DNA of 63,274 bases, counting the filler. It is 5 parts of 5 records of this genome, joined end to end, with 100 filler letters (N's around TTAATTAATTAA, not from the genome) between each part and the next. Parts side by side here need not be neighbours in the genome. Positions count along the whole stretch, not along the records: positions 20,647 to 27,805 come from SRR20825010_1698; 4 more parts are not named here. One strand, written 5' to 3'. The position numbers were made by a program, and so were the translations under genes. Below the pieces are notes generated by a model. That model saw only the letters and a program-made list of their open reading frames with translations. It did no database searches and had not been told where the DNA came from. This document shows, piece after piece, positions 11,173 through 59,538 of the stretch (positions within the stretch are counted from its first letter, which is position 1; each line of letters starts with the position of its first letter).

Positions 11173-11272
11173 NNNNNNNNNNNNNNNNNNNNNNNNNNNN
11201 NNNNNNNNNNNNNNNNTTAATTAATTAANNNNNNNNNNNNNNNNNNNNNNNNNNNNNNNNNNNNNNNNNNNN
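11173..11272. other. Artificial contig linker
   Basis: N44-TTAATTAATTAA-N44 (stop codons in all six frames). Confidence 0.98.
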
Positions 11273-20546: not shown

Positions 20547-20646
20547 NNNNNNNNNNNNNNNNNNNNNNNNNNNNNNNNNNNNNNNNNNNNTTAATTAATT
20601 AANNNNNNNNNNNNNNNNNNNNNNNNNNNNNNNNNNNNNNNNNNNN
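20547..20646. other. Artificial contig linker
   Basis: N44-TTAATTAATTAA-N44. Confidence 0.98.
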
Positions 20647-20728
20647 GCTCTCAACCAACGTGCTACGATGATTGGATCCGACGGGTGGGACTCACCGGTT
20701 GGTTTGCTTCTCTTTCAAAGGTTCCCTC

Positions 20729-21082
20729 ATGTTCGCCGGTGGTTTGGTCCTCGCCAGCACACTGATCTTTTTCGCTGTTTGGTTGCAGCGTTCCGAACAG
20801 GTCGGCTGGTCGCATGAAAGATTCGACGAAGAAATCGATCAGTCCTACATGCAACGCCGACGTCGCTCTCGCAAACGAGTGAACTTCTTGTTCTTGGTTT
20901 GTGGCATCTTGGTGTTGGTCGCGACCTTGGCCACTCCCAGAAACCATGCCGTGTGGCTGTGCTGTTGGATTTCGGTGATGTTGTCGCTGATGACCATTCT
21001 GATGCTAGCCGGACTGGATGCTTTGCGAACGATGCGGCACGTTCGCCATCGACTGGATCACCTGCGTCAAAAACGGTCGTGA
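20729..21082 (+). CDS. Small membrane hypothetical protein (about 3 TM)
   Basis: Three hydrophobic segments; likely start at ATG 20729. Confidence 0.65.
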   Translation: MFAGGLVLASTLIFFAVWLQRSEQVGWSHERFDEEIDQSYMQRRRRSRKRVNFLFLVCGILVLVATLATPRNHAVWLCCWISVMLSLMTILMLAGLDALRTMRHVRHRLDHLRQKRS

Positions 21083-21172
21083 GTTTTTACCGGAGGGCTC
21101 GCGCCCTACCGCTTCAAATGGACGTGTGAAACTTGTCTTCGGTGGGTTGTGTCTTGACATTGAGCCACGGCG

Positions 21173-23035
21173 ATGGCTATCGACCGAGACATGCTGACCG
21201 ATGAATCCATTGCTGTGCGTCGTCCTCGACGATGGGACGAACCGATGGACCCGCACATGACCGATGCGGACGTGGGATGGTTGCGCGAACAGTCCCCCTT
21301 TTCGAACCTGGATCCGGCCGCGTTTCCCAAATCGATTCCGCTCGATGGCATCCTTCGGAACGATTGTCGATTGCATCGTTTCGCTCACGGCGAAGTGATC
21401 GCTCGCGAGGGTGATTACGCAAACAGTGCGTTCCTATTGGTTGATGGACACGCTGAACTGTTGACTCGCGAATTGCCACCGGAATTGCTCGGTCGTCGTG
21501 AAACCGAAAAAGTATCGTGGCCCAAAGCGGTTTGGCAATTGCTCCGACCTTCCGGCGTTCGCGAAGCTCGGCGTCCCGAGGAAGTCGTCCCGAATGTCGA
21601 CTTACATGCCTCCGCCCATCATGCGGACGATCGTCCTCCGGTTTTACAGTTGCAGGACTTCGATGGGCTGGTGCGAGCCGGCCAAAGTGTGCGATTGAGT
21701 CCGGGCGAATTGTTCGGTGAGGTTGCGGCGATGTATCGGTCGCCGCGATCGGCCACAGTTGTTTCGCAGGGCGATAGCACGTTGCTGGAGATCCGACTGC
21801 AGGGTCTGAAGATGCTGCGTCGCGATCCCGCGTTTTCGCAGCGGATGGACGATCACTACCGAGAAAACTGGCTGCCGATCCACCTGCGTGAAATCCCATT
21901 GTTGCGATTTCTACCCGAGCAAAATTTGCAGCGAGTGGTTGCGGCGACGGTCCAACGTTCATTCGGTCGATTGGAATGGAATGCGGACTACAAAAAGACT
22001 CGCAAGCTTTCTCCCGCCGAGCAAATTGAAAGCGAACCGGTGGTGGCCACCGAGGGTCATCAGGTCACGGATCTGATCATCGTTCGCAGCGGTTTTGGGC
22101 GGGTTTGTCAAAGCTACGGTGTGGCTCAACGAACGACCGCGTACCTCGGCAAGGGCCACCTATTCGGTCTGGAAGAGATCGCGTTGGGTGTCACCAATGA
22201 AGACGGACCGATCAATTTGCCGCTGCAGCATTCGCTTCGTGCGGTCGGGTTCCTAGACACGTTGCACATCCCGGTCGAATGCTTTGCAACCGACATTTTG
22301 CCACACGTTCGCCGCAGCGAATTGCCAGCTTCGGCCGCGAAAGCGTTGTTGCGAATGCCGGCATCCGAGGAGGCTCGTGAACGTCGCAGCGAAGAGCGAC
22401 CGAAGGTGGATTTGCCGATCGTTTCGACCGCGATGAATCACACCAGCGAGGAAACATGGCAGGATTTGCCGAGTCCAACCGGGACATCCTTTGAGCCCAC
22501 CGGATTGCTCGAGTTCATCGTTCAGAATCGTTTTAACAACGGTCGCGAAGCGATGATCATTGATTTGCATCGTTGCACCCGTTGCGATGATTGCGTCAAA
22601 GCCTGCGCGAGCGTGCATGATGGCAATCCCAAGTTTGCTCGCGTTGGCGTCAACCATGATCGACTGCAATTCGTTCAGGCATGCATGCACTGCACCGATC
22701 CCGTTTGCATGATCGGTTGCCCAACGGGAGCTTTGCACCGCGAGGAATCGACCGGCCACGTTCGTGTTTCGGAATCCATTTGCATTGGTTGCGGCACGTG
22801 CGCCAAAGGGTGCCCGTACGGCAACATCGAAATGGCGGCAGTGAACGATCACAAGGGACGTCCCTACACCGACGAAGCGAGCAACCGGCCGATCACCAAG
22901 GCGACCAAGTGCGACATGTGCAGTGGACTGCCCAGCGGGCCGGCATGCGCCGCGGCGTGCCCACATGATGCGATCGTTCGAATTGACTTGAGCGAATCGC
23001 CGCCGCTGGAAGACTGGTTGAGGAGACGAACATGA
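21173..23035 (+). CDS. Cyclic-nucleotide-binding domain / 4x[4Fe-4S] (DmsB/NrfC-type) fusion protein
   Basis: cNMP motifs GEVIAREGDYANSAFLLVDG and FGEVAAMYRSPRSATV, plus a second degenerate cNMP domain. Four Cys groups: CTRCDDCVKAC, CMHCTDPVCMIGCP, CIGCGTCAKGCP, CDMC...CAAACP. Confidence 0.88.
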   Translation: MAIDRDMLTDESIAVRRPRRWDEPMDPHMTDADVGWLREQSPFSNLDPAAFPKSIPLDGILRNDCRLHRFAHGEVIAREGDYANSAFLLVDGHAELLTRELPPELLGRRETEKVSWPKAVWQLLRPSGVREARRPEEVVPNVDLHASAHHADDRPPVLQLQDFDGLVRAGQSVRLSPGELFGEVAAMYRSPRSATVVSQGDSTLLEIRLQGLKMLRRDPAFSQRMDDHYRENWLPIHLREIPLLRFLPEQNLQRVVAATVQRSFGRLEWNADYKKTRKLSPAEQIESEPVVATEGHQVTDLIIVRSGFGRVCQSYGVAQRTTAYLGKGHLFGLEEIALGVTNEDGPINLPLQHSLRAVGFLDTLHIPVECFATDILPHVRRSELPASAAKALLRMPASEEARERRSEERPKVDLPIVSTAMNHTSEETWQDLPSPTGTSFEPTGLLEFIVQNRFNNGREAMIIDLHRCTRCDDCVKACASVHDGNPKFARVGVNHDRLQFVQACMHCTDPVCMIGCPTGALHREESTGHVRVSESICIGCGTCAKGCPYGNIEMAAVNDHKGRPYTDEASNRPITKATKCDMCSGLPSGPACAAACPHDAIVRIDLSESPPLEDWLRRRT

Positions 23036-23970
23036 GTGTGGCTGAACGCCGCCGTTCTGCGTCGTCGCGACGTTGGCAACAATTCCGCACCGATGCCCTG
23101 TCCAAATTCCGTCGCCGAGTGTTTGGCACCGGTCGAGCATGGTCGTTTCGTCGTCGACGAATCGCGAGTTTGATCGTTGTCGCGATTGCGATTGTGTTAA
23201 CCGCCTGGATATCGCAAACGCTGCATACGGCGCTCTATCGAAGCAGCGTGATGACGGGCTGGACGCTGCTGAGTTCGATCTTGATTTTGTTTGCGATCGG
23301 CATTCGTCGTCGGATTCCGATCTTGCCACTGGGCACGATGAGCACCTGGACTCAGGTTCACATTTTCACCGGTCTGTTTGCGTGTGGCGTGTTTGTGATG
23401 CACGTGCCCGCGATCGCGACGGGACGACTGATCGCGGATGGTTGGCTGGAAGGAACGCTGAGCGTCTTGTTCATCGGCGTCAGCCTCTCGGGATTCTATG
23501 GGATCCTGGCGAGTCGTCGATTGCCGGCTCGTTTGACCGCAATGGGCAGCCAACCTCGGTACGATCAAATCGATTGGCATCGAGAGCAATTGGCGGCACG
23601 CGCGACGCAGCGTCTGGACAGTTTGACCAGCGTCGACTCTCAACGCGTCTTGGGCGAGTTTGACGATCAATACCTTCGTCGGTATCTCGAGTCACCGCTT
23701 TCGTGGTCACACCGCTTGTTCGCTCATTCGTTTCGACGTCGCCGTTTGGTGATCGGTTTGAATGAGCTGCATCGGTACTTGGGAGACGACGGCAAAGAAG
23801 TTGCTGACGAACTTGCCGGTTTGGTTCGTCGCCGCGATGAACTGGACACACAGCACGCTCTTCAGTGGCGACTGCGGGCTTGGGTGGCGGTTCACGCCGT
23901 GATGTCGTTGGGATTGGTGGCGCTCGCCATCATGCACACCATTCATGCATTGCAGTTTGTGGAATCATGA
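23032..23970 (+). CDS. Polytopic membrane protein with intramembrane His residues (possible heme-b/quinone module)
   Basis: About 5 TM segments; His pairs in QVHIFTG...VMHVP and AVHAVMS...IMHTIH; ATGA overlaps on both sides. Confidence 0.7.
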   Translation: MSVAERRRSASSRRWQQFRTDALSKFRRRVFGTGRAWSFRRRRIASLIVVAIAIVLTAWISQTLHTALYRSSVMTGWTLLSSILILFAIGIRRRIPILPLGTMSTWTQVHIFTGLFACGVFVMHVPAIATGRLIADGWLEGTLSVLFIGVSLSGFYGILASRRLPARLTAMGSQPRYDQIDWHREQLAARATQRLDSLTSVDSQRVLGEFDDQYLRRYLESPLSWSHRLFAHSFRRRRLVIGLNELHRYLGDDGKEVADELAGLVRRRDELDTQHALQWRLRAWVAVHAVMSLGLVALAIMHTIHALQFVES

Positions 23971-26315
23971 GACGCGACGACTTTCAATTGCCGATACCAC
24001 CGAGGATCGAACGCCCCGGACACCCGTACGCATGCGGGCGTTCACCGGGATGCGATCCGTGTCTGCATGGACCGAGCCGCACCGGTGCGTGCCCCTTTGC
24101 CGACAGCGATGATTCTGAGAACGAGGCTTGTTCTCCACGACGAACTTGGGCGGGACGTCGACGTCAATTCACAGCCGCGATGCTGGCGATTTTGGCCGCC
24201 GCGATGGTCGTTCTCTTCGCGACTCGAGCGACACCCAAAGTCATTCAGCCGGGCAACCTGACAACCGCTCACGCGCAAATCCTGTCGGGCGAATTGGCTC
24301 AAGACCGATGTGCGGCGTGTCACCAAAATGCGACCAGCAACCGCTGGCTGACATCCTCCAGCGACCCGACATCGAGCAAGCAGAACGAAGACAAAGGCCT
24401 GTTCAGTTTGGCAAACTGGATCGGTGGCGATGATACGAAACACGCCGACATGCCGACTGTGGCCATGACCGACTTGTGTCTGAATTGCCACGAGCAACAA
24501 ATGCCGCGCGAGTCGGCTCGATGGGCACACAATTTGTCGCAGGAAGTCCGCGACGAACTGACTTTGGCCGCGATCGAGAAACGCGATGGCAGGCTCCGTA
24601 ATGACGGGCCCCGTGATAGTAGGCTCGCTGATGATAAATTCGCAAGCAGCCAGCCCAGCGATGGTCAGTCCAGTGATTTGGTTGCGATTGCGAAGATTTC
24701 CGAAGCTTCCTCAACGGTTCCCACCGTTCAAACGGTCAGCCGGAAGTCATCGCTGCAAAACAACTTGGCCTGCAGTGTTTGCCACCAAGAACACCATGGA
24801 GCGGATGCGAACCTCGCCGCCATCACCGATTCGCGTTGCCAAACCTGTCACGTCAATCAATTTGGTTCCTTTGCTGATTCGCATCCCGAGTTTGGCCAGT
24901 GGCCGTACGCGCAAGCGTCCAACATCCACTTTGATCATGGAAGGCACGCGAAGATTCATTTCCCCAGTGAAGCTGAGAAACGAAACGGTGGAGATTCATC
25001 AAGCTCCAACGCCTTTGCGACGTTTGATTGCAAGACATGTCACGTCGGACCGAGTTTCTCGAGTTTTGATCTGGACTCGACCGATCCGGTGATGACAACG
25101 TTGCCGTACGAGATTGCTTGTGCGCAGTGCCATGATGAAGCGTTGCGAGTTCAAGTTGCCGAAGGTCCCGCTTTGTTGCAGCTACCGGTCTTGCCGGACG
25201 ACATCGCACTGCAAGTTGAAGATTGGCCGACTCTGGCGACGGGTTTTGCCGATGGCACGGTGGATGGCTGGATGGCGTTGATGTTGCGAGAGCAGATCAG
25301 CGAGTCGGCTCTGAATCGTTTCCGGCGTGTTGATTCGGCGAACTGGGATTCGCCAATTGTCCAAGTCGAAGCGGTATCGCTGGGCAGGGCGATCACCAAG
25401 CTCTCACAAGAGTTGGCGACGACCGGTCAAGATGCACTCATGCAAAGACTGCGAGAAGCTGGGATCGATGAGCAAACCGCTCTGCCGCTCGTCGAATCGT
25501 TTCCGCCTCAATTGGTTCGTGACGCGCTGCGGGTTTGGTTTGGTGAAGCTGACACCGCCGCCGAATCCAAAGTCGATTCATTGATGCAGGCTGGTGCGTT
25601 CAGCGGATTGCTGGACGATGACGTCAAGAGCGAATTCGACAACGACTTTGGCGGCGGGTTCGGCGGGGCTGATCCGTTGCTTGCCGATGACCCGTTGCTG
25701 GCCGACGATCCATTGACCTCTTGGTCCACCACCGAGGAAGAAACGCCCACGCCGGAAAAAGCTGACTGGGCGGCCGAGTTGGCGGCTCGCTACGACGCAG
25801 CCAAAACACAATCGTTTGGTGGCTGGTATCGAGACGATGTGACTTTGTCGGTTCGCTACCGCGGCAAAGGTCACTCCGACGCGGTGTTGCGATCGATGAT
25901 CGAGATCATTCAGCGGTTACCATCCGATGACCCGCTCAAACAATCCTTGTTGGCTCAGCCAGCGGTTCAAGCCTGCGTGGGGTGTCACCAGGTGCAGACA
26001 GATTCGTTGGCCAATGCGTCACTCGCTTCGATGCGATGGCAAGCATTCCGCGATAAAGAAAACGGCGATCGGCTCACTCATTTCTCACACACGCCTCACT
26101 TGAACGTGCAGGGATTGCAGGATTGCAAACACTGCCACCAACCTGGAACGACCAATGCGGCCAATGCGGTGCACATGGTGGGTGAGTCGCCGGTCGATGC
26201 GTCGCCTGAATTTTTGCCGATGACGAAGGCGAGCTGTTCCAGTTGCCACACCAAGTCGGCGGCGGGGGATCACTGCACTCGATGCCATCGCTATCATGTG
26301 CACGATGTCCCATGA
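23967..26315 (+). CDS. Membrane-anchored multiheme cytochrome c (10 CxxCH)
   Basis: CAACH, CLNCH, CSVCH, CQTCH, CKTCH, CAQCH, CVGCH, CKHCH, CSSCH, CTRCH; single TM after RRRQ; start at ATG 23967 by ATGA overlap. Confidence 0.88.
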   Translation: MRRDDFQLPIPPRIERPGHPYACGRSPGCDPCLHGPSRTGACPFADSDDSENEACSPRRTWAGRRRQFTAAMLAILAAAMVVLFATRATPKVIQPGNLTTAHAQILSGELAQDRCAACHQNATSNRWLTSSSDPTSSKQNEDKGLFSLANWIGGDDTKHADMPTVAMTDLCLNCHEQQMPRESARWAHNLSQEVRDELTLAAIEKRDGRLRNDGPRDSRLADDKFASSQPSDGQSSDLVAIAKISEASSTVPTVQTVSRKSSLQNNLACSVCHQEHHGADANLAAITDSRCQTCHVNQFGSFADSHPEFGQWPYAQASNIHFDHGRHAKIHFPSEAEKRNGGDSSSSNAFATFDCKTCHVGPSFSSFDLDSTDPVMTTLPYEIACAQCHDEALRVQVAEGPALLQLPVLPDDIALQVEDWPTLATGFADGTVDGWMALMLREQISESALNRFRRVDSANWDSPIVQVEAVSLGRAITKLSQELATTGQDALMQRLREAGIDEQTALPLVESFPPQLVRDALRVWFGEADTAAESKVDSLMQAGAFSGLLDDDVKSEFDNDFGGGFGGADPLLADDPLLADDPLTSWSTTEEETPTPEKADWAAELAARYDAAKTQSFGGWYRDDVTLSVRYRGKGHSDAVLRSMIEIIQRLPSDDPLKQSLLAQPAVQACVGCHQVQTDSLANASLASMRWQAFRDKENGDRLTHFSHTPHLNVQGLQDCKHCHQPGTTNAANAVHMVGESPVDASPEFLPMTKASCSSCHTKSAAGDHCTRCHRYHVHDVP

Positions 26316-27006
26316 ACTCCGACAGCCGTCTCAACCGACGAACCCATTTTCCAGTCGTCACACGCGGCCGGGTGCGATTCCGTTTCGCTTTGACCTGAAC
26401 GGAAGCGATCGGGCAGGGCACATCGCGAGAATCCTGGCGGGCTTGCGACAACATCGACTCGGTTTGATCGTTGGAAATCACGGGACTGGCAAGTCGACGC
26501 TGTTGCACGACATGGCCCACGCGTTGCAGGAGAAGTTTCCCGGCGGGAAATGGATTCAACTGACCGCCGATCCCAACCGCTCGCCGATCGCTGTCGTCTC
26601 CAACATGCTGCAGAACGACCGAGCCGCGACCGAGACACAGGCAACGGTTTCGCCTGGTGGAGTGCTGGTTATCGACGGGGCGGAACAATTGTCTCCGTGG
26701 GGACGCTTTCGAATTCGTCGACGAGCTCAACAAGCGGGCCACGTTTGTTTGGCGACGGCACATCGGGATCTTCGCGGTTTTCACGTGTTGCACCGAACGA
26801 AGGTGACCGCCAAGCTGATTGAGGACTTGCTGGCAGAATTGCTGAGAGACCATCCGAACGCCCGAGAAAAGCTGGCGAAGGTCGAGAAGGCGGAATCAAT
26901 GCCGTCTTTCGCCGATGTCACCGATGTTCGCGAACTTTGGTCTCAACTCTATGATGTTGTGGGACTGTCCTCGGAAACGCCATCTTCGGAGATGCCTGAG
27001 CCATGA
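26305..27006 (+). CDS. Small P-loop (AAA-like) ATPase
   Basis: Walker A GNHGTGKST and Walker B LVIDGAEQL; overlaps the cytochrome stop. Confidence 0.75.
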   Translation: MSHELRQPSQPTNPFSSRHTRPGAIPFRFDLNGSDRAGHIARILAGLRQHRLGLIVGNHGTGKSTLLHDMAHALQEKFPGGKWIQLTADPNRSPIAVVSNMLQNDRAATETQATVSPGGVLVIDGAEQLSPWGRFRIRRRAQQAGHVCLATAHRDLRGFHVLHRTKVTAKLIEDLLAELLRDHPNAREKLAKVEKAESMPSFADVTDVRELWSQLYDVVGLSSETPSSEMPEP

Positions 27007-27080
27007 ACGTCCGACAACCGCATCGATCTCCGGCCTGACGCGCCCCCCAAAAATTGCCCCGACCTCTGAGTGGATCATTC

Positions 27081-27719
27081 ATGGCTGTACGTTTGAACGT
27101 GATCGTGCTTCGTCCCACCGGCGAACATCGCCATTTTGATCCTGCATGTGACGATGCCGTGGGGCAGTTGCTCGGTCGGCCAGGACTCGATCTTGTGTTG
27201 CTCGATCGCATCCCTGGACCGGACGAGTCCGGCACGGAACGATTGGCAGTGGAATCAATCGCGGGCGATGTCGCTTGCGTTGGTTGGACGGAAGCCGAAA
27301 AGGTTTCCGAACCGCTTGGGTTGTTGGGCAAACGGGTCGCTCGTGTGCCGCACCGACGAGACGTGGATGCCGCCCCGGTTCAAGGCGATGAACCGATCGC
27401 GAAGCTGTATCACTTTGACATGCGTCGCGAAGGTGCGTCGCAGACGATTTTGGCGGACTTGCAAGCGTTGCTGGCGACTCGACAGACTCCGATGTTTCAG
27501 ATCGGGATGGCTGGTTCAACGTCATCTAAACAGACGAAGGCGACGTCGGCGTCCAAGGCCCAGCCCAACGCCGCCCCCATCCAAAACGTGACGCCGTCTT
27601 TGGCCAAGCCACCCGCGTCAGAGGCTTCGCCGTTGGGTTCCGCCACGCCGCCATTGACCAAGAACCAATCCACTGACTTGGACGCATTGGTGGATGAACT
27701 GGACGAGTTGGATCTTTGA
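27081..27719 (+). CDS. Hypothetical protein
   Basis: Open frame with an Ala/Pro/Ser/Thr linker and acidic C-terminus (LDALVDELDELDL). Confidence 0.6.
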   Translation: MAVRLNVIVLRPTGEHRHFDPACDDAVGQLLGRPGLDLVLLDRIPGPDESGTERLAVESIAGDVACVGWTEAEKVSEPLGLLGKRVARVPHRRDVDAAPVQGDEPIAKLYHFDMRREGASQTILADLQALLATRQTPMFQIGMAGSTSSKQTKATSASKAQPNAAPIQNVTPSLAKPPASEASPLGSATPPLTKNQSTDLDALVDELDELDL

Positions 27720-27805
27720 TTTGTGCGAGTGTTTGCAAGTGGACTTGGTTGCGATGCGGTTTGGCGGTTGAAAATTGCCCGACGGAACAGTTGAGGACAA
27801 CGGTT

Positions 27806-27905
27806 NNNNNNNNNNNNNNNNNNNNNNNNNNNNNNNNNNNNNNNNNNNNTTAATTAATTAANNNNNNNNNNNNNNNNNNNNNNNNNNNNNNNNNNNNNNN
27901 NNNNN
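27806..27905. other. Artificial contig linker
   Basis: N44-TTAATTAATTAA-N44. Confidence 0.98.
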
Positions 27906-59438: not shown

Positions 59439-59538
59439 NNNNNNNNNNNNNNNNNNNNNNNNNNNNNNNNNNNNNNNNNNNNTTAATTAATTAANNNNNN
59501 NNNNNNNNNNNNNNNNNNNNNNNNNNNNNNNNNNNNNN
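59439..59538. other. Artificial contig linker
   Basis: N44-TTAATTAATTAA-N44. Confidence 0.98.

Follow-up and report, generated by a model that had tools for sequence, protein, structure and literature searches.

The ptdEFG genes of the Rhodopirellula group: a candidate inner-membrane core of the dispersed Ptd/PCC4 conduit with a conserved cyclic-nucleotide pocket

Gene layout and identity of the locus

N-spacers separate the contigs that make up the window analyzed here (63,274 nucleotides); the locus of interest lies on a single contig, at positions 20647-27805, and genome-level statements are drawn from related genomes. Four overlapping genes lie on this contig (Table 1), with ATGA junctions at 23032 and 23967 and a further overlap between the third and the fourth, exactly as read in the first-pass annotation; a promoter/terminator scan stayed at chance level (3 vs 2.1; 10 vs 9.1). 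In the neighborhood check proposed there, the first gene is located directly upstream of the second in 80/80 GTDB loci and the third comes next in 72 of the 80, an arrangement that favors the model proposed below, although in 8/80 loci the first two are intact and the third is missing, which counts against it. The fourth gene, which matches Pfam AAA_16 below the cut-off (E=3e-7), was considered as a fourth subunit and rejected: it is found near the trio in just 16/80 loci, in two arrangements (in 8 it follows the trio on that strand, in the other 8 it lies upstream and faces the opposite way), and is a local neighbor outside the conserved module.

Table 1. Genes of the locus, with positions in the window
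Gene	Coordinates	Strand	Length	Predicted features
ORF A, PtdE	21173..23035	+	620 aa	tandem CNB + 4x[4Fe-4S], cytoplasmic
ORF B, PtdF (PCC4 inner-membrane protein)	23032..23970	+	312 aa	5 TM helices
ORF C, PtdG	23967..26315	+	782 aa	TM-anchored decaheme cytochrome c
ORF D, P-loop/AAA ATPase-like	26305..27006	+	233 aa	overlaps ptdG

Judging by motifs, heme counts and gene order, the first three genes are ptdEFG of the ptdABCDEFG cluster, which by the same signs is the cluster described as PCC4 subgroup II. The Ptd cluster was named, and reported in Planctomycetes, by Elbon et al. (bioRxiv 10.1101/2023.11.21.568154), who call the function of the ptd operon completely unknown; as presented in that preprint and in PMC5566968, the descriptions of ptd and of PCC4 are both bioinformatic.

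PtdE combines a conserved cyclic-nucleotide pocket with a polyferredoxin domain

An HMM scan of PtdE detected Pfam cNMP_binding (E=3.9e-18) and Fer4_11 (E=4.1e-9), and the protein contains no hydrophobic segment and no export signal, in agreement with the absence of a signal peptide noted at first pass. Its first phosphate-binding cassette (CNB-A, FGE..PRSATV) is intact, with G182, E183 and R192 plus an invariant extra R189, and the second (CNB-B, FGLEE) is degenerate, again in agreement with the initial reading. According to PMC11224242, the Gly, Glu and Arg of the cassette bind the ribose and phosphate of the cyclic nucleotide. A Foldseek search with the AF2 model (pLDDT 84) placed tandem CNB-A/B domains of PKA-R and PKG on top (E=2.5e-15), so that PtdE shows both the Gly-Glu...Arg cassette and the fold of ligand-binding CNB domains of the CRP/PKA/PKG type. 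Residues 181-200 are among the most conserved of the protein (mean identity 0.90), R192 is present in 108/120 close homologs, and all three cassette residues are kept in 65/71 distant metagenomic and 18/20 family PtdEs. By these signatures, the first cNMP pocket is intact and conserved.

Downstream of a disordered linker (residues 413-440), residues 461-608 form a domain of the HycB/HydN type, predicted to carry 4x[4Fe-4S]. The domain contains 16 of the 19 cysteines of PtdE; these 16 are invariant in 120/120 homologs, which suggests four 4Fe-4S clusters, as opposed to the two counted by Elbon et al. The 16 cysteines of the first-pass annotation thus stand, whereas their likeness to DmsB/NrfC does not: scores against these families are 48-56 bits with cut-offs of 214-378, and the domain is closer to the cytoplasmic HydN/HycB wires (best matches NCBIfam HydN, E=1e-17, and PDB HDCR HycB3, E=1.4e-17), all NCBIfam scores being far below cut-off.

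PtdF and PtdG: putative b-type and c-type heme wires

PtdF contains five hydrophobic segments with two His pairs, as first described. The motif WX3HX13H occurs twice, on TM3 (W106, H110, H124) and on TM5 (W284, H288, H302), SGXXG lies on TM4 (S153-G154..G157), and a cytoplasmic helical insert of ~110 aa separates TM4 from TM5. Among distant representatives, the four motif histidines are virtually invariant (H110 and H124 in 148/148, H288 in 146/147, H302 in 145/147) and other histidines are poorly kept (H65 in 3/145, H305 in 0/146). These residues point to a predicted diheme-b protein of the ferric-reductase/NOX-like kind, in line with the nearest ESM Atlas cluster, which is named ferric-reductase-like (score 0.95). 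PtdF has no NCBIfam match and no match to Pfam PF01794, which was weakly hit (E=4e-4) by 1 of 7 homologs scanned; the PtdF profile found nothing below E=0.1 among PDB sequences and Foldseek found no match at E<=0.001 for the AF2 model (pLDDT 93). Fold comparison remained at background level, both for the HyaC cytochrome b (Z 8.0, rmsd 3.9 over 138 aa) and for SpNOX (Z 6.4, rmsd 5.2 over 147 aa), which weighs against the NOX-like assignment, and the VIA structure lists are filled by generic helical bundles.

The PtdF profile matches 2182 clusters at 50% identity. Two kinds of fusion favor the model proposed below: one natural fusion of PtdE with PtdF, and PtdF-like domains fused to NAD(P)H flavoproteins, upstream of multiheme genes, at two loci. 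An apparent fusion of PtdF with PtdG was dismissed, being a single member with the second His motif cut and a frameshifted look.

The single TM segment (68-86) and ten CxxCH motifs initially seen in PtdG were both confirmed, and the ten motifs are kept in 62/62 aligned PtdGs. Among 12 further conserved histidines, 11 occur in 60-62 of the 62 and H159 in 52, suggesting that the periplasmic decaheme domain is an all-bis-His wire. The N-terminal cytoplasmic segment contains C23, C32, C42 and C55, conserved in 49-50 of 62. Conservation of motifs and gene order thus supports the cytoplasm-to-periplasm conduit that had been proposed, in which Fe-S, putative diheme-b and heme-c subunits are combined with a conserved cNMP pocket.

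Dispersal of the ptd cluster

In the Rhodopirellula group, the ptd cluster is dispersed into ptdAB, ptdD and ptdEFG loci, which is described here for the first time: profiles of PtdA-D have no match in the window or in the 80 loci, and ptdAB and ptdD are found at separate loci in 5/5 related genomes. That the three genes are the whole system, as had been assumed, is accordingly not supported. Complete ptdA-B-C-D-E-F-G clusters are present in other Planctomycetota (four loci), and 79 metagenome loci contain E in 79, F in 75, G in 61, C in 52, D in 48, A in 39 and B in 39. Among 101 family genomes, ptdF is present in 38, ptdG in 39 and ptdA in 39; 38 have both ptdA and ptdG and 61 have neither, counts that are not independent events because related genomes share gene content. 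In five MAGs lacking ptdG, ptdA is undetected or truncated in 5/5, and ptdD is undetected or riddled with stop codons in 4/5. All these patterns favor the model set out below.

The claim that the system has no flavo subunit is likewise unsupported, since the FNR-type PtdC is normally in the cluster, though in the Rhodopirellula group the 11 closest genomes gave no clear match at E<=1e-62, which counts against the model below. R. europaea 6C encodes a generic FNR+2Fe-2S protein that does not group with Pirellulaceae PtdC in a tree with an unsupported backbone. The Sphingobium PtdE carries an N-terminal Pyr_redox domain, a further point for that model, and its locus is flanked by metallophosphoesterase genes; a plasmid search returned only 12 records, all from Sphingobium.

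Is the conduit gated by a cyclic nucleotide?

With an intact cyclic-nucleotide pocket in its Fe-S subunit, the wire may be turned on or off by a second messenger. Genomic context provides a candidate source: a class III cyclase gene adjoins the cluster in 10/20 loci of other Pirellulaceae and in 4/20 loci across the phylum, compared with a background of 18 genes in 44.7 Mb. By alignment to Cya2 and CyaB, the selecting residue of the cyclase is Asp, within a guanylyl-like Asp/Lys pair. No class III cyclase gene was detected at the 80 Rhodopirellula-group loci or, at E<=1e-45, in R. europaea 6C; just 5/79 metagenome loci have one nearby, all adenylyl-type, and a general link between cyclases and ptd was rejected on this count. 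The same cyclase family is present in 16/62 ptdG-negative genomes, and of 16 further cyclase loci, 12 are next to neither a ptd-like nor a multiheme gene, all of which weighs against the gated model. An anti-phage Pycsar role was also discarded, given that neither PtdE nor PtdF has a PADLOC match and the cyclases match PycC through the catalytic domain only.

The same conduit could be ungated, with the CNB domains as a structural or vestigial scaffold, or binding another ligand, and a wire that works constitutively or under transcriptional or phosphorylation control. This would agree with the degeneracy of CNB-B everywhere, with a whole clade in which R192 is replaced by His or Gln and the rest of the module is kept (10/75 readable Rhodopirellula-group loci), with the failure of 11/35 more distant cNMP-FeS proteins to fit the canonical cassette pattern, with the occurrence of FHA domains on PtdE, PtdC and the cyclase and of a kinase gene at one locus, and with PCC4 subgroup I, which as described in PMC5566968 has no Fe-S gene altogether. 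We nevertheless consider it unlikely, given the strong conservation of segment 181-200 and of the cassette in distant orthologs, the enrichment of cyclase genes next to the cluster in Planctomycetota, and the metallophosphoesterase genes beside the Sphingobium locus. Loss of the cassette Arg does not track loss of ptdG: 10/10 Arg-less loci keep ptdG, and 7/7 readable loci without a ptdG match (one of them merely cut at a contig end) keep the Arg.

A tentative model and its alternatives

What the computation shows is the identity of the genes, their conserved motifs and order, their dispersal and their joint occurrence; from this we infer which cofactors are bound, how the subunits meet, which way electrons run, what the donor is in the Rhodopirellula group and that the system is gated, as follows. 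A cytoplasmic reductant would deliver electrons through the four putative [4Fe-4S] clusters of PtdE to a pair of b hemes in PtdF, one ligated by H110/H288 near the cytoplasm and one by H124/H302 near the periplasm, from which they would pass to the ten hemes of PtdG, to the tetraheme PtdD and, at the porin PtdB, to the pentaheme PtdA. NAD(P)H would be the reductant in most lineages, with PtdC (FNR+[2Fe-2S]) as its entry point, and in the Rhodopirellula group another donor would take its place, such as ferredoxin or a non-dedicated FNR. Binding of a cyclic mononucleotide to CNB-A of PtdE would modulate the flow. That ptdEFG encodes the inner-membrane core of a dispersed Ptd/PCC4 system of this kind, a split NADPH oxidase or ferric reductase-like enzyme extended by a heme wire and modulated by cNMP, appears to us an even proposition. 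The fuller picture is distinctly more speculative: possibly, Ptd/PCC4 is a second-messenger-gated, NOX-like conduit spanning the whole envelope, in which cGMP made by a dedicated, FHA-bearing class III cyclase of Pirellulaceae with a guanylyl-type Asp/Lys base-selecting pair binds PtdE and switches the flow between reductants in the cytoplasm and a 19-heme wire ending at the porin, the Rhodopirellula group having a dispersed, PtdC-free version.

The flow might instead run inward: Fe(II), Mn(II) or humics outside the cell would be the source, and electrons would travel through porin and cytochromes to PtdF and the quinone pool, with PtdE as a side branch to ferredoxin or NAD. Electrons run downhill from NAD(P)H to heme, and Rhodopirellula are aerobic heterotrophs which, to our knowledge, are not metal oxidizers. 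Together with the FNR-type NAD(P)H protein PtdC in most clusters and the fusions of related membrane domains to NAD(P)H flavoproteins, this makes the inward route improbable, even though the 11 closest genomes of the Rhodopirellula group yielded no dedicated NAD(P)H dehydrogenase. An inward conduit into quinone is the PCC4 model of He et al. (PMC5566968), who detected PCC4 in Zetaproteobacteria and Hyphomicrobium and suggest that its cytochrome b reacts with quinones.

Equally hard to credit is a redox sensor in which the heme chain would report outside redox conditions to the clusters of PtdE, and thence to cNMP binding or to a cyclase or FHA partner, with signaling rather than bulk flux as the output. 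No output domain accompanies CNB and Fe-S in PtdE, the combination of 19 c hemes, porin and dehydrogenase seems made for flux, and ptdAB is highly transcribed in ODZ MAGs; a sensor would, for its part, explain why some MAGs retain intact E and F alongside decaying c cytochromes, why FHA, cyclase and kinase genes adjoin the cluster, and why PtdE is one of just three cNMP-domain matches in R. europaea 6C.

Known porin-cytochrome conduits are fed by the quinone pool and controlled at the level of transcription. If the outward, cNMP-modulated model is true, a CNB subunit wiring a widespread conduit to cytoplasmic Fe-S clusters would amount to direct allosteric control of extracellular electron transfer, and aerobic heterotrophic planctomycetes would gain an unexplained envelope-spanning redox system. 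The cluster having been named twice already, the value of the present analysis lies in the means of testing that it offers: cultured strains (R. baltica SH1, UniProt Q7UHT6/Q7UHT7), a soluble CNB fragment, the natural Arg-to-His clade as a control, and a candidate cognate cyclase.

Comparison with known systems

The first-pass statement that no characterized example is known is correct to the extent that we found none characterized biochemically, although the genes already had names, PtdEFG and PCC4; a search of openly accessible literature found no paper joining cGMP, guanylyl cyclase, multiheme cytochromes and electron transfer. As in the ptd operon described by Elbon et al., PtdE with cNMP and 4Fe-4S domains, ferric-reductase-like PtdF and periplasmic decaheme PtdG follow in identical order; in contrast to it, only EFG are together here, with ptdAB and ptdD elsewhere and no clear ptdC. 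The main text of that preprint makes no mention of cyclase, FHA, cGMP, Rhodopirellula or PCC4. PCC4 subgroup II (He et al. 2017, PMC5566968), which includes Planctomycetes, comprises a porin and 4-, 5- and 10-heme cytochromes, an inner-membrane protein with SGXXG and two WX3HX13H motifs, and an upstream Fe-S gene (pfam13247). The locus reproduces the 5-TM protein with these motifs on TM3/TM5 and TM4, the directly upstream PF13247 + PF00027 gene (both above cut-off, 80/80) and the downstream decaheme with one TM anchor (72/80), and differs in that pentaheme, porin and tetraheme genes are outside the cluster, which in PMC5566968 is contiguous and proposed to carry Fe(II) oxidation inward into quinone; the main text of that paper mentions neither a cNMP domain nor a cyclase.

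The HycB/HydN/CooF subunits (HDCR HycB3, FHL HycB), which provide the best sequence matches of the C-terminal domain of PtdE, have no CNB domains and are partnered with hydrogenase or formate dehydrogenase. The Nrf/Hmc/Act/Qrc loops follow the same general plan, in which Fe-S, membrane and multiheme subunits are combined; in these loops the membrane subunit resembles NrfD and has 8-10 helices, and the Fe-S subunit usually resides in the periplasm. PtdF, with five helices and no NCBIfam match, and PtdE, with no export signal and low NrfC/DmsB scores, place the trio outside the NrfCD/DmsBC/Hmc/Act redox loops. NOX and ferric reductases (FRD), such as SpNOX and MsrQ, have four His on TM3/TM5 with 13-residue gaps, as PtdF does (the motif link is made in PMC5566968), and the full ptd cluster resembles them in its FNR-type FAD/NAD(P)H module as the electron source. 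Unlike these enzymes, the Ptd system has the dehydrogenase as a separate protein, adds a CNB-bearing polyferredoxin and a multiheme wire, and includes a membrane subunit with a large cytoplasmic TM4-TM5 insert and a structural match at background level.

Genomic setting of the trio

On sequence grounds, and judged against the descriptions in two papers (discussed below), the products of genes A, B and C are PtdE, PtdF and PtdG. Together with the AAA ATPase-like gene D they are confined to a single contig. An ORF check bore out the coordinates and overlaps of this four-gene set as first annotated, along with the 16 Fe-S cysteines of PtdE, the five hydrophobic segments of PtdF, and the 10 CxxCH motifs and single TM segment of PtdG. 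The genes flanking each artificial spacer come from different contigs with differing G+C and hence are not neighbours. PtdF is 98-99% identical to Rhodopirellula proteins, and R. baltica SH1 carries near-identical copies of PtdE and PtdF (Q7UHT6, Q7UHT7); genome-level statements rest on relatives, namely R. europaea 6C, two Stieleria genomes, a Novipirellula genome and a Rubripirellula MAG (G001-G005).

Coordinates of the features discussed
Feature	Sequence	Position	Strand	Remark
Contig with the four-gene locus	window	20647-27805		
ptdE (A)	window	21173-23035	+	
ptdF (B)	window	23032-23970	+	
ptdG (C)	window	23967-26315	+	
Cys-rich PtdG N-terminus	window	23967-24130		residues 16-61
Acidic PtdG repeat	window	25620-25720		DPLL-DD type, heme-free middle
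AAA ATPase-like gene (D)	window	26305-27006	+	
AAA gene and next 212-aa hypothetical gene	window	26305-27719		
Artificial spacers (N-TTAATTAATTAA-N)	window	11173-11272, 20547-20646, 27806-27905, 59439-59538		
FNR+2Fe-2S / PtdF-like / heptaheme module	R. europaea 6C, L148	7680-12123		
Pyr_redox-BFD-PtdF-like fusion, then decaheme	R. europaea 6C, L149	8365-11761		
Flavin-cNMP-FeS fusion, PtdF-like, FHA-like decaheme	Sphingobium herbicidovorans plasmid pMSHV, L081	7187-21219		
PtdF-like domain beside cytochrome of 15-26 heme motifs	L160	8169-15656		also L162, L167

A dispersed variant in the Rhodopirellula group

The trio is real and conserved. In all 80 GTDB Rhodopirellula-group loci ptdE lies upstream of ptdF, with ptdG next in 72. 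Gene D is close to the trio in 16/80, in two arrangements; it moves as a pair with the following hypothetical gene, and the pair lies upstream on the opposite strand in Stieleria and kin. Profiles of PtdA-D had no match in the window or in the 80 loci, and ptdAB and ptdD sit at separate places in 5/5 related genomes. Among 101 genomes of the family Pirellulaceae, ptdF was found in 38, ptdG in 39 and ptdA in 39 (E<1e-100, a cut chosen after a gap between 1e-104 and 2e-65 was seen; weaker paralogues beyond it occur in 15 further genomes). ptdA and ptdG occur together in 38 of these genomes and are both missing in 61. In G325, which has ptdG without ptdA, ptdF contains stops and the ptdG open frame is only 325 aa. 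Five of the eight MAGs lacking ptdG were examined: none yielded ptdG, ptdA was either not found or truncated in every one, and ptdD either was not found or was interrupted by stops in four. Although MAGs have gaps and related genomes are not independent, internal stops at an unlinked locus lead us to argue that the dispersed ptd genes constitute one system. Of the 101 genomes, 22 gave a PtdC orthologue (21 with ptdG, one without), and none was found in the 11 genomes closest to the window; L178 of R. europaea is an ambiguous candidate.

Predicted heme sites of PtdF and PtdG

The PtdF profile, built from 31 sequences, matched 2182 representatives; among the best 150 of these, less two excluded fusions, the four histidines (H110 and H124 on TM3, H288 and H302 on TM5) are conserved in 148/148, 148/148, 146/147 and 145/147. 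In the AF2 model (pLDDT 93) the N-terminal part forms four helices, followed by a helical insert and an extended fifth helix; the model matches cytochromes b only at background level. The positive-inside rule suggests that TM3 and TM5 are parallel, so that H110/H288 would bind a predicted cytoplasmic heme and H124/H302 a predicted periplasmic one.

PtdG has 12 conserved histidines besides those of the CxxCH motifs, sufficient for ten bis-His hemes. Four cysteines of its cytoplasmic N-terminus (C23, C32, C42, C55) are kept in 49-50 of 62 sequences and possibly form a Zn or Fe-S site, on the membrane side that is wrong for heme; elsewhere in the Planctomycetota, ptdG copies begin with a similarly Cys-rich stretch. 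In the acidic repeat, D569, L571, D581 and L583 are kept in 58-59/62, and similar Asp/Leu repeats are found near the PtdA N-terminus in L143.

The PtdE pocket and the cyclase link

The predicted fold of PtdE is confident (pLDDT 84): in the model, the N-terminal 400 residues resemble the tandem CNB-A/B domains of PKA-R and PKG. The nearest relatives of the C-terminal domain are the cytoplasmic HycB/HydN wires. The cassette G/E/R are ribose/phosphate residues of CNB domains, according to PMC11224242. Across 120 PtdE homologues F181, G182 and E183 are invariant, and R192 is kept in 108, with His in the other 12; the second cassette reads FGLEE. The full G+E+R set is present in 65/71 metagenomic and 18/20 family PtdEs, and an extra arginine, R189, is invariant. 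As counter-evidence, R192 is gone in 10 of 75 readable Rhodopirellula-group loci. The arginine is swapped, mostly to His, in L003-L009 (Aporhodopirellula, Neorhodopirellula and kin), L027, L075 and L078, where the module is intact; such loci are a predicted natural cNMP-blind control.

Of 20 family loci, picked from 38 partly for long contigs and linkage, 10 have a class III cyclase gene adjoining the cluster. So do 4 of 20 phylum loci, among them a near-identical pair and one whose gene is a canonical adenylyl cyclase; the background is 18 such genes per 44.7 Mb examined. Some adjoining copies contain an FHA domain. The base-selecting pair is Asp + Lys in 12 of 13 aligned copies, versus the adenylyl Lys + Asp, and the best PDB match is 2w01, that is, Cya2, of the Glu/Lys type. 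Cya2 has guanylyl cyclase activity. In PfPucC the guanine-selecting pair is reported to be an acidic residue + Lys. Against the link, the cluster-adjoining cyclase family is present in 26/39 ptdG-positive but also in 16/62 ptdG-negative genomes, and of 16 further cyclase loci only four lie near ptd-like or multiheme genes. No such cyclase lies beside the cluster in the 80 Rhodopirellula-group loci; in R. europaea 6C the family was not found at E<=1e-45, and the genome encodes one divergent relative besides two cyclases of the adenylyl type. The 79 metagenome loci include only five cyclases, of the adenylyl type.

On balance, the PtdE pocket is likely ligand-competent, and the messenger may differ by lineage. 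Gating of the conduit by cNMP, as initially proposed, is a hypothesis; we consider an ungated wire unlikely. A hint of phosphorylation control comes from FHA insertions in PtdE or PtdC, and from a Ser/Thr kinase gene adjoining the cluster (L128, L131, L136, L137, L189).

Direction of electron flow and related modules

At L149 and L160, PtdF-like domains share a polypeptide with an NAD(P)H flavoprotein and have multiheme genes downstream, the Sphingobium PtdE has a flavin domain of its own, and an E+F fusion is known. These architectures favour NADPH-oxidase-like outward flow modulated by cNMP binding to PtdE, a scheme to which we give about even chances. Electrons would pass from NAD(P)H via FAD, [2Fe-2S] and 4x[4Fe-4S] to two b hemes, then through 10+4+5 c hemes to the porin, with cNMP bound to PtdE modulating the flow. 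An inward conduit, in which metal oxidation feeds quinone, seems improbable, and we hold it equally doubtful that the conduit is a redox sensor.

The Sphingobium locus is flanked by two metallophosphoesterase genes, an Omp85/ShlB gene and a large LVIVD multiheme gene. A second, more distant cluster type (L096, L097, L146, L150-L159) combines a PtdF-like protein, decaheme and tetraheme cytochromes and a cNMP protein that carries additional Fe-S domains and often has a degenerate cassette. The L160, L162 and L167 clusters are possibly PCC3-like.

Relation to described clusters

The ptd preprint (bioRxiv 10.1101/2023.11.21.568154) lists PtdA as a pentaheme cytochrome, PtdB as a porin, PtdC as an FAD/NAD(P) oxidoreductase, PtdD as a tetraheme cytochrome, PtdE as a cNMP + 4Fe-4S protein, PtdF as ferric-reductase-like and PtdG as a decaheme cytochrome, with the cluster function given as unknown. 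Orthologues of A, B and C occur within complete ptdABCDEFG clusters of other Planctomycetota; the PtdC of these clusters combines FNR and [2Fe-2S] and is anchored in the membrane. The 79 metagenome loci, many on short contigs, contain E in 79, F in 75, G in 61, C in 52, D in 48, and A and B in 39 each. Neither the main texts nor the examined supplements of the two papers contain the co-decay, the cyclase link restricted to some lineages, or the dispersed form that lacks PtdC; the remaining supplements may show domain architecture. The trio was initially thought to have no characterised example: it is indeed uncharacterised, but it had been described twice from sequence, as ptd and as PCC4. In the latter (PMC5566968), a porin is joined by cytochromes of 4, 5 and 10 hemes and by a membrane protein that has an SGXXG motif and a pair of WX3HX13H motifs; in subgroup II an Fe-S gene lies upstream of the membrane-protein gene. 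The PtdF of the window likewise has SGXXG and both WX3HX13H motifs.
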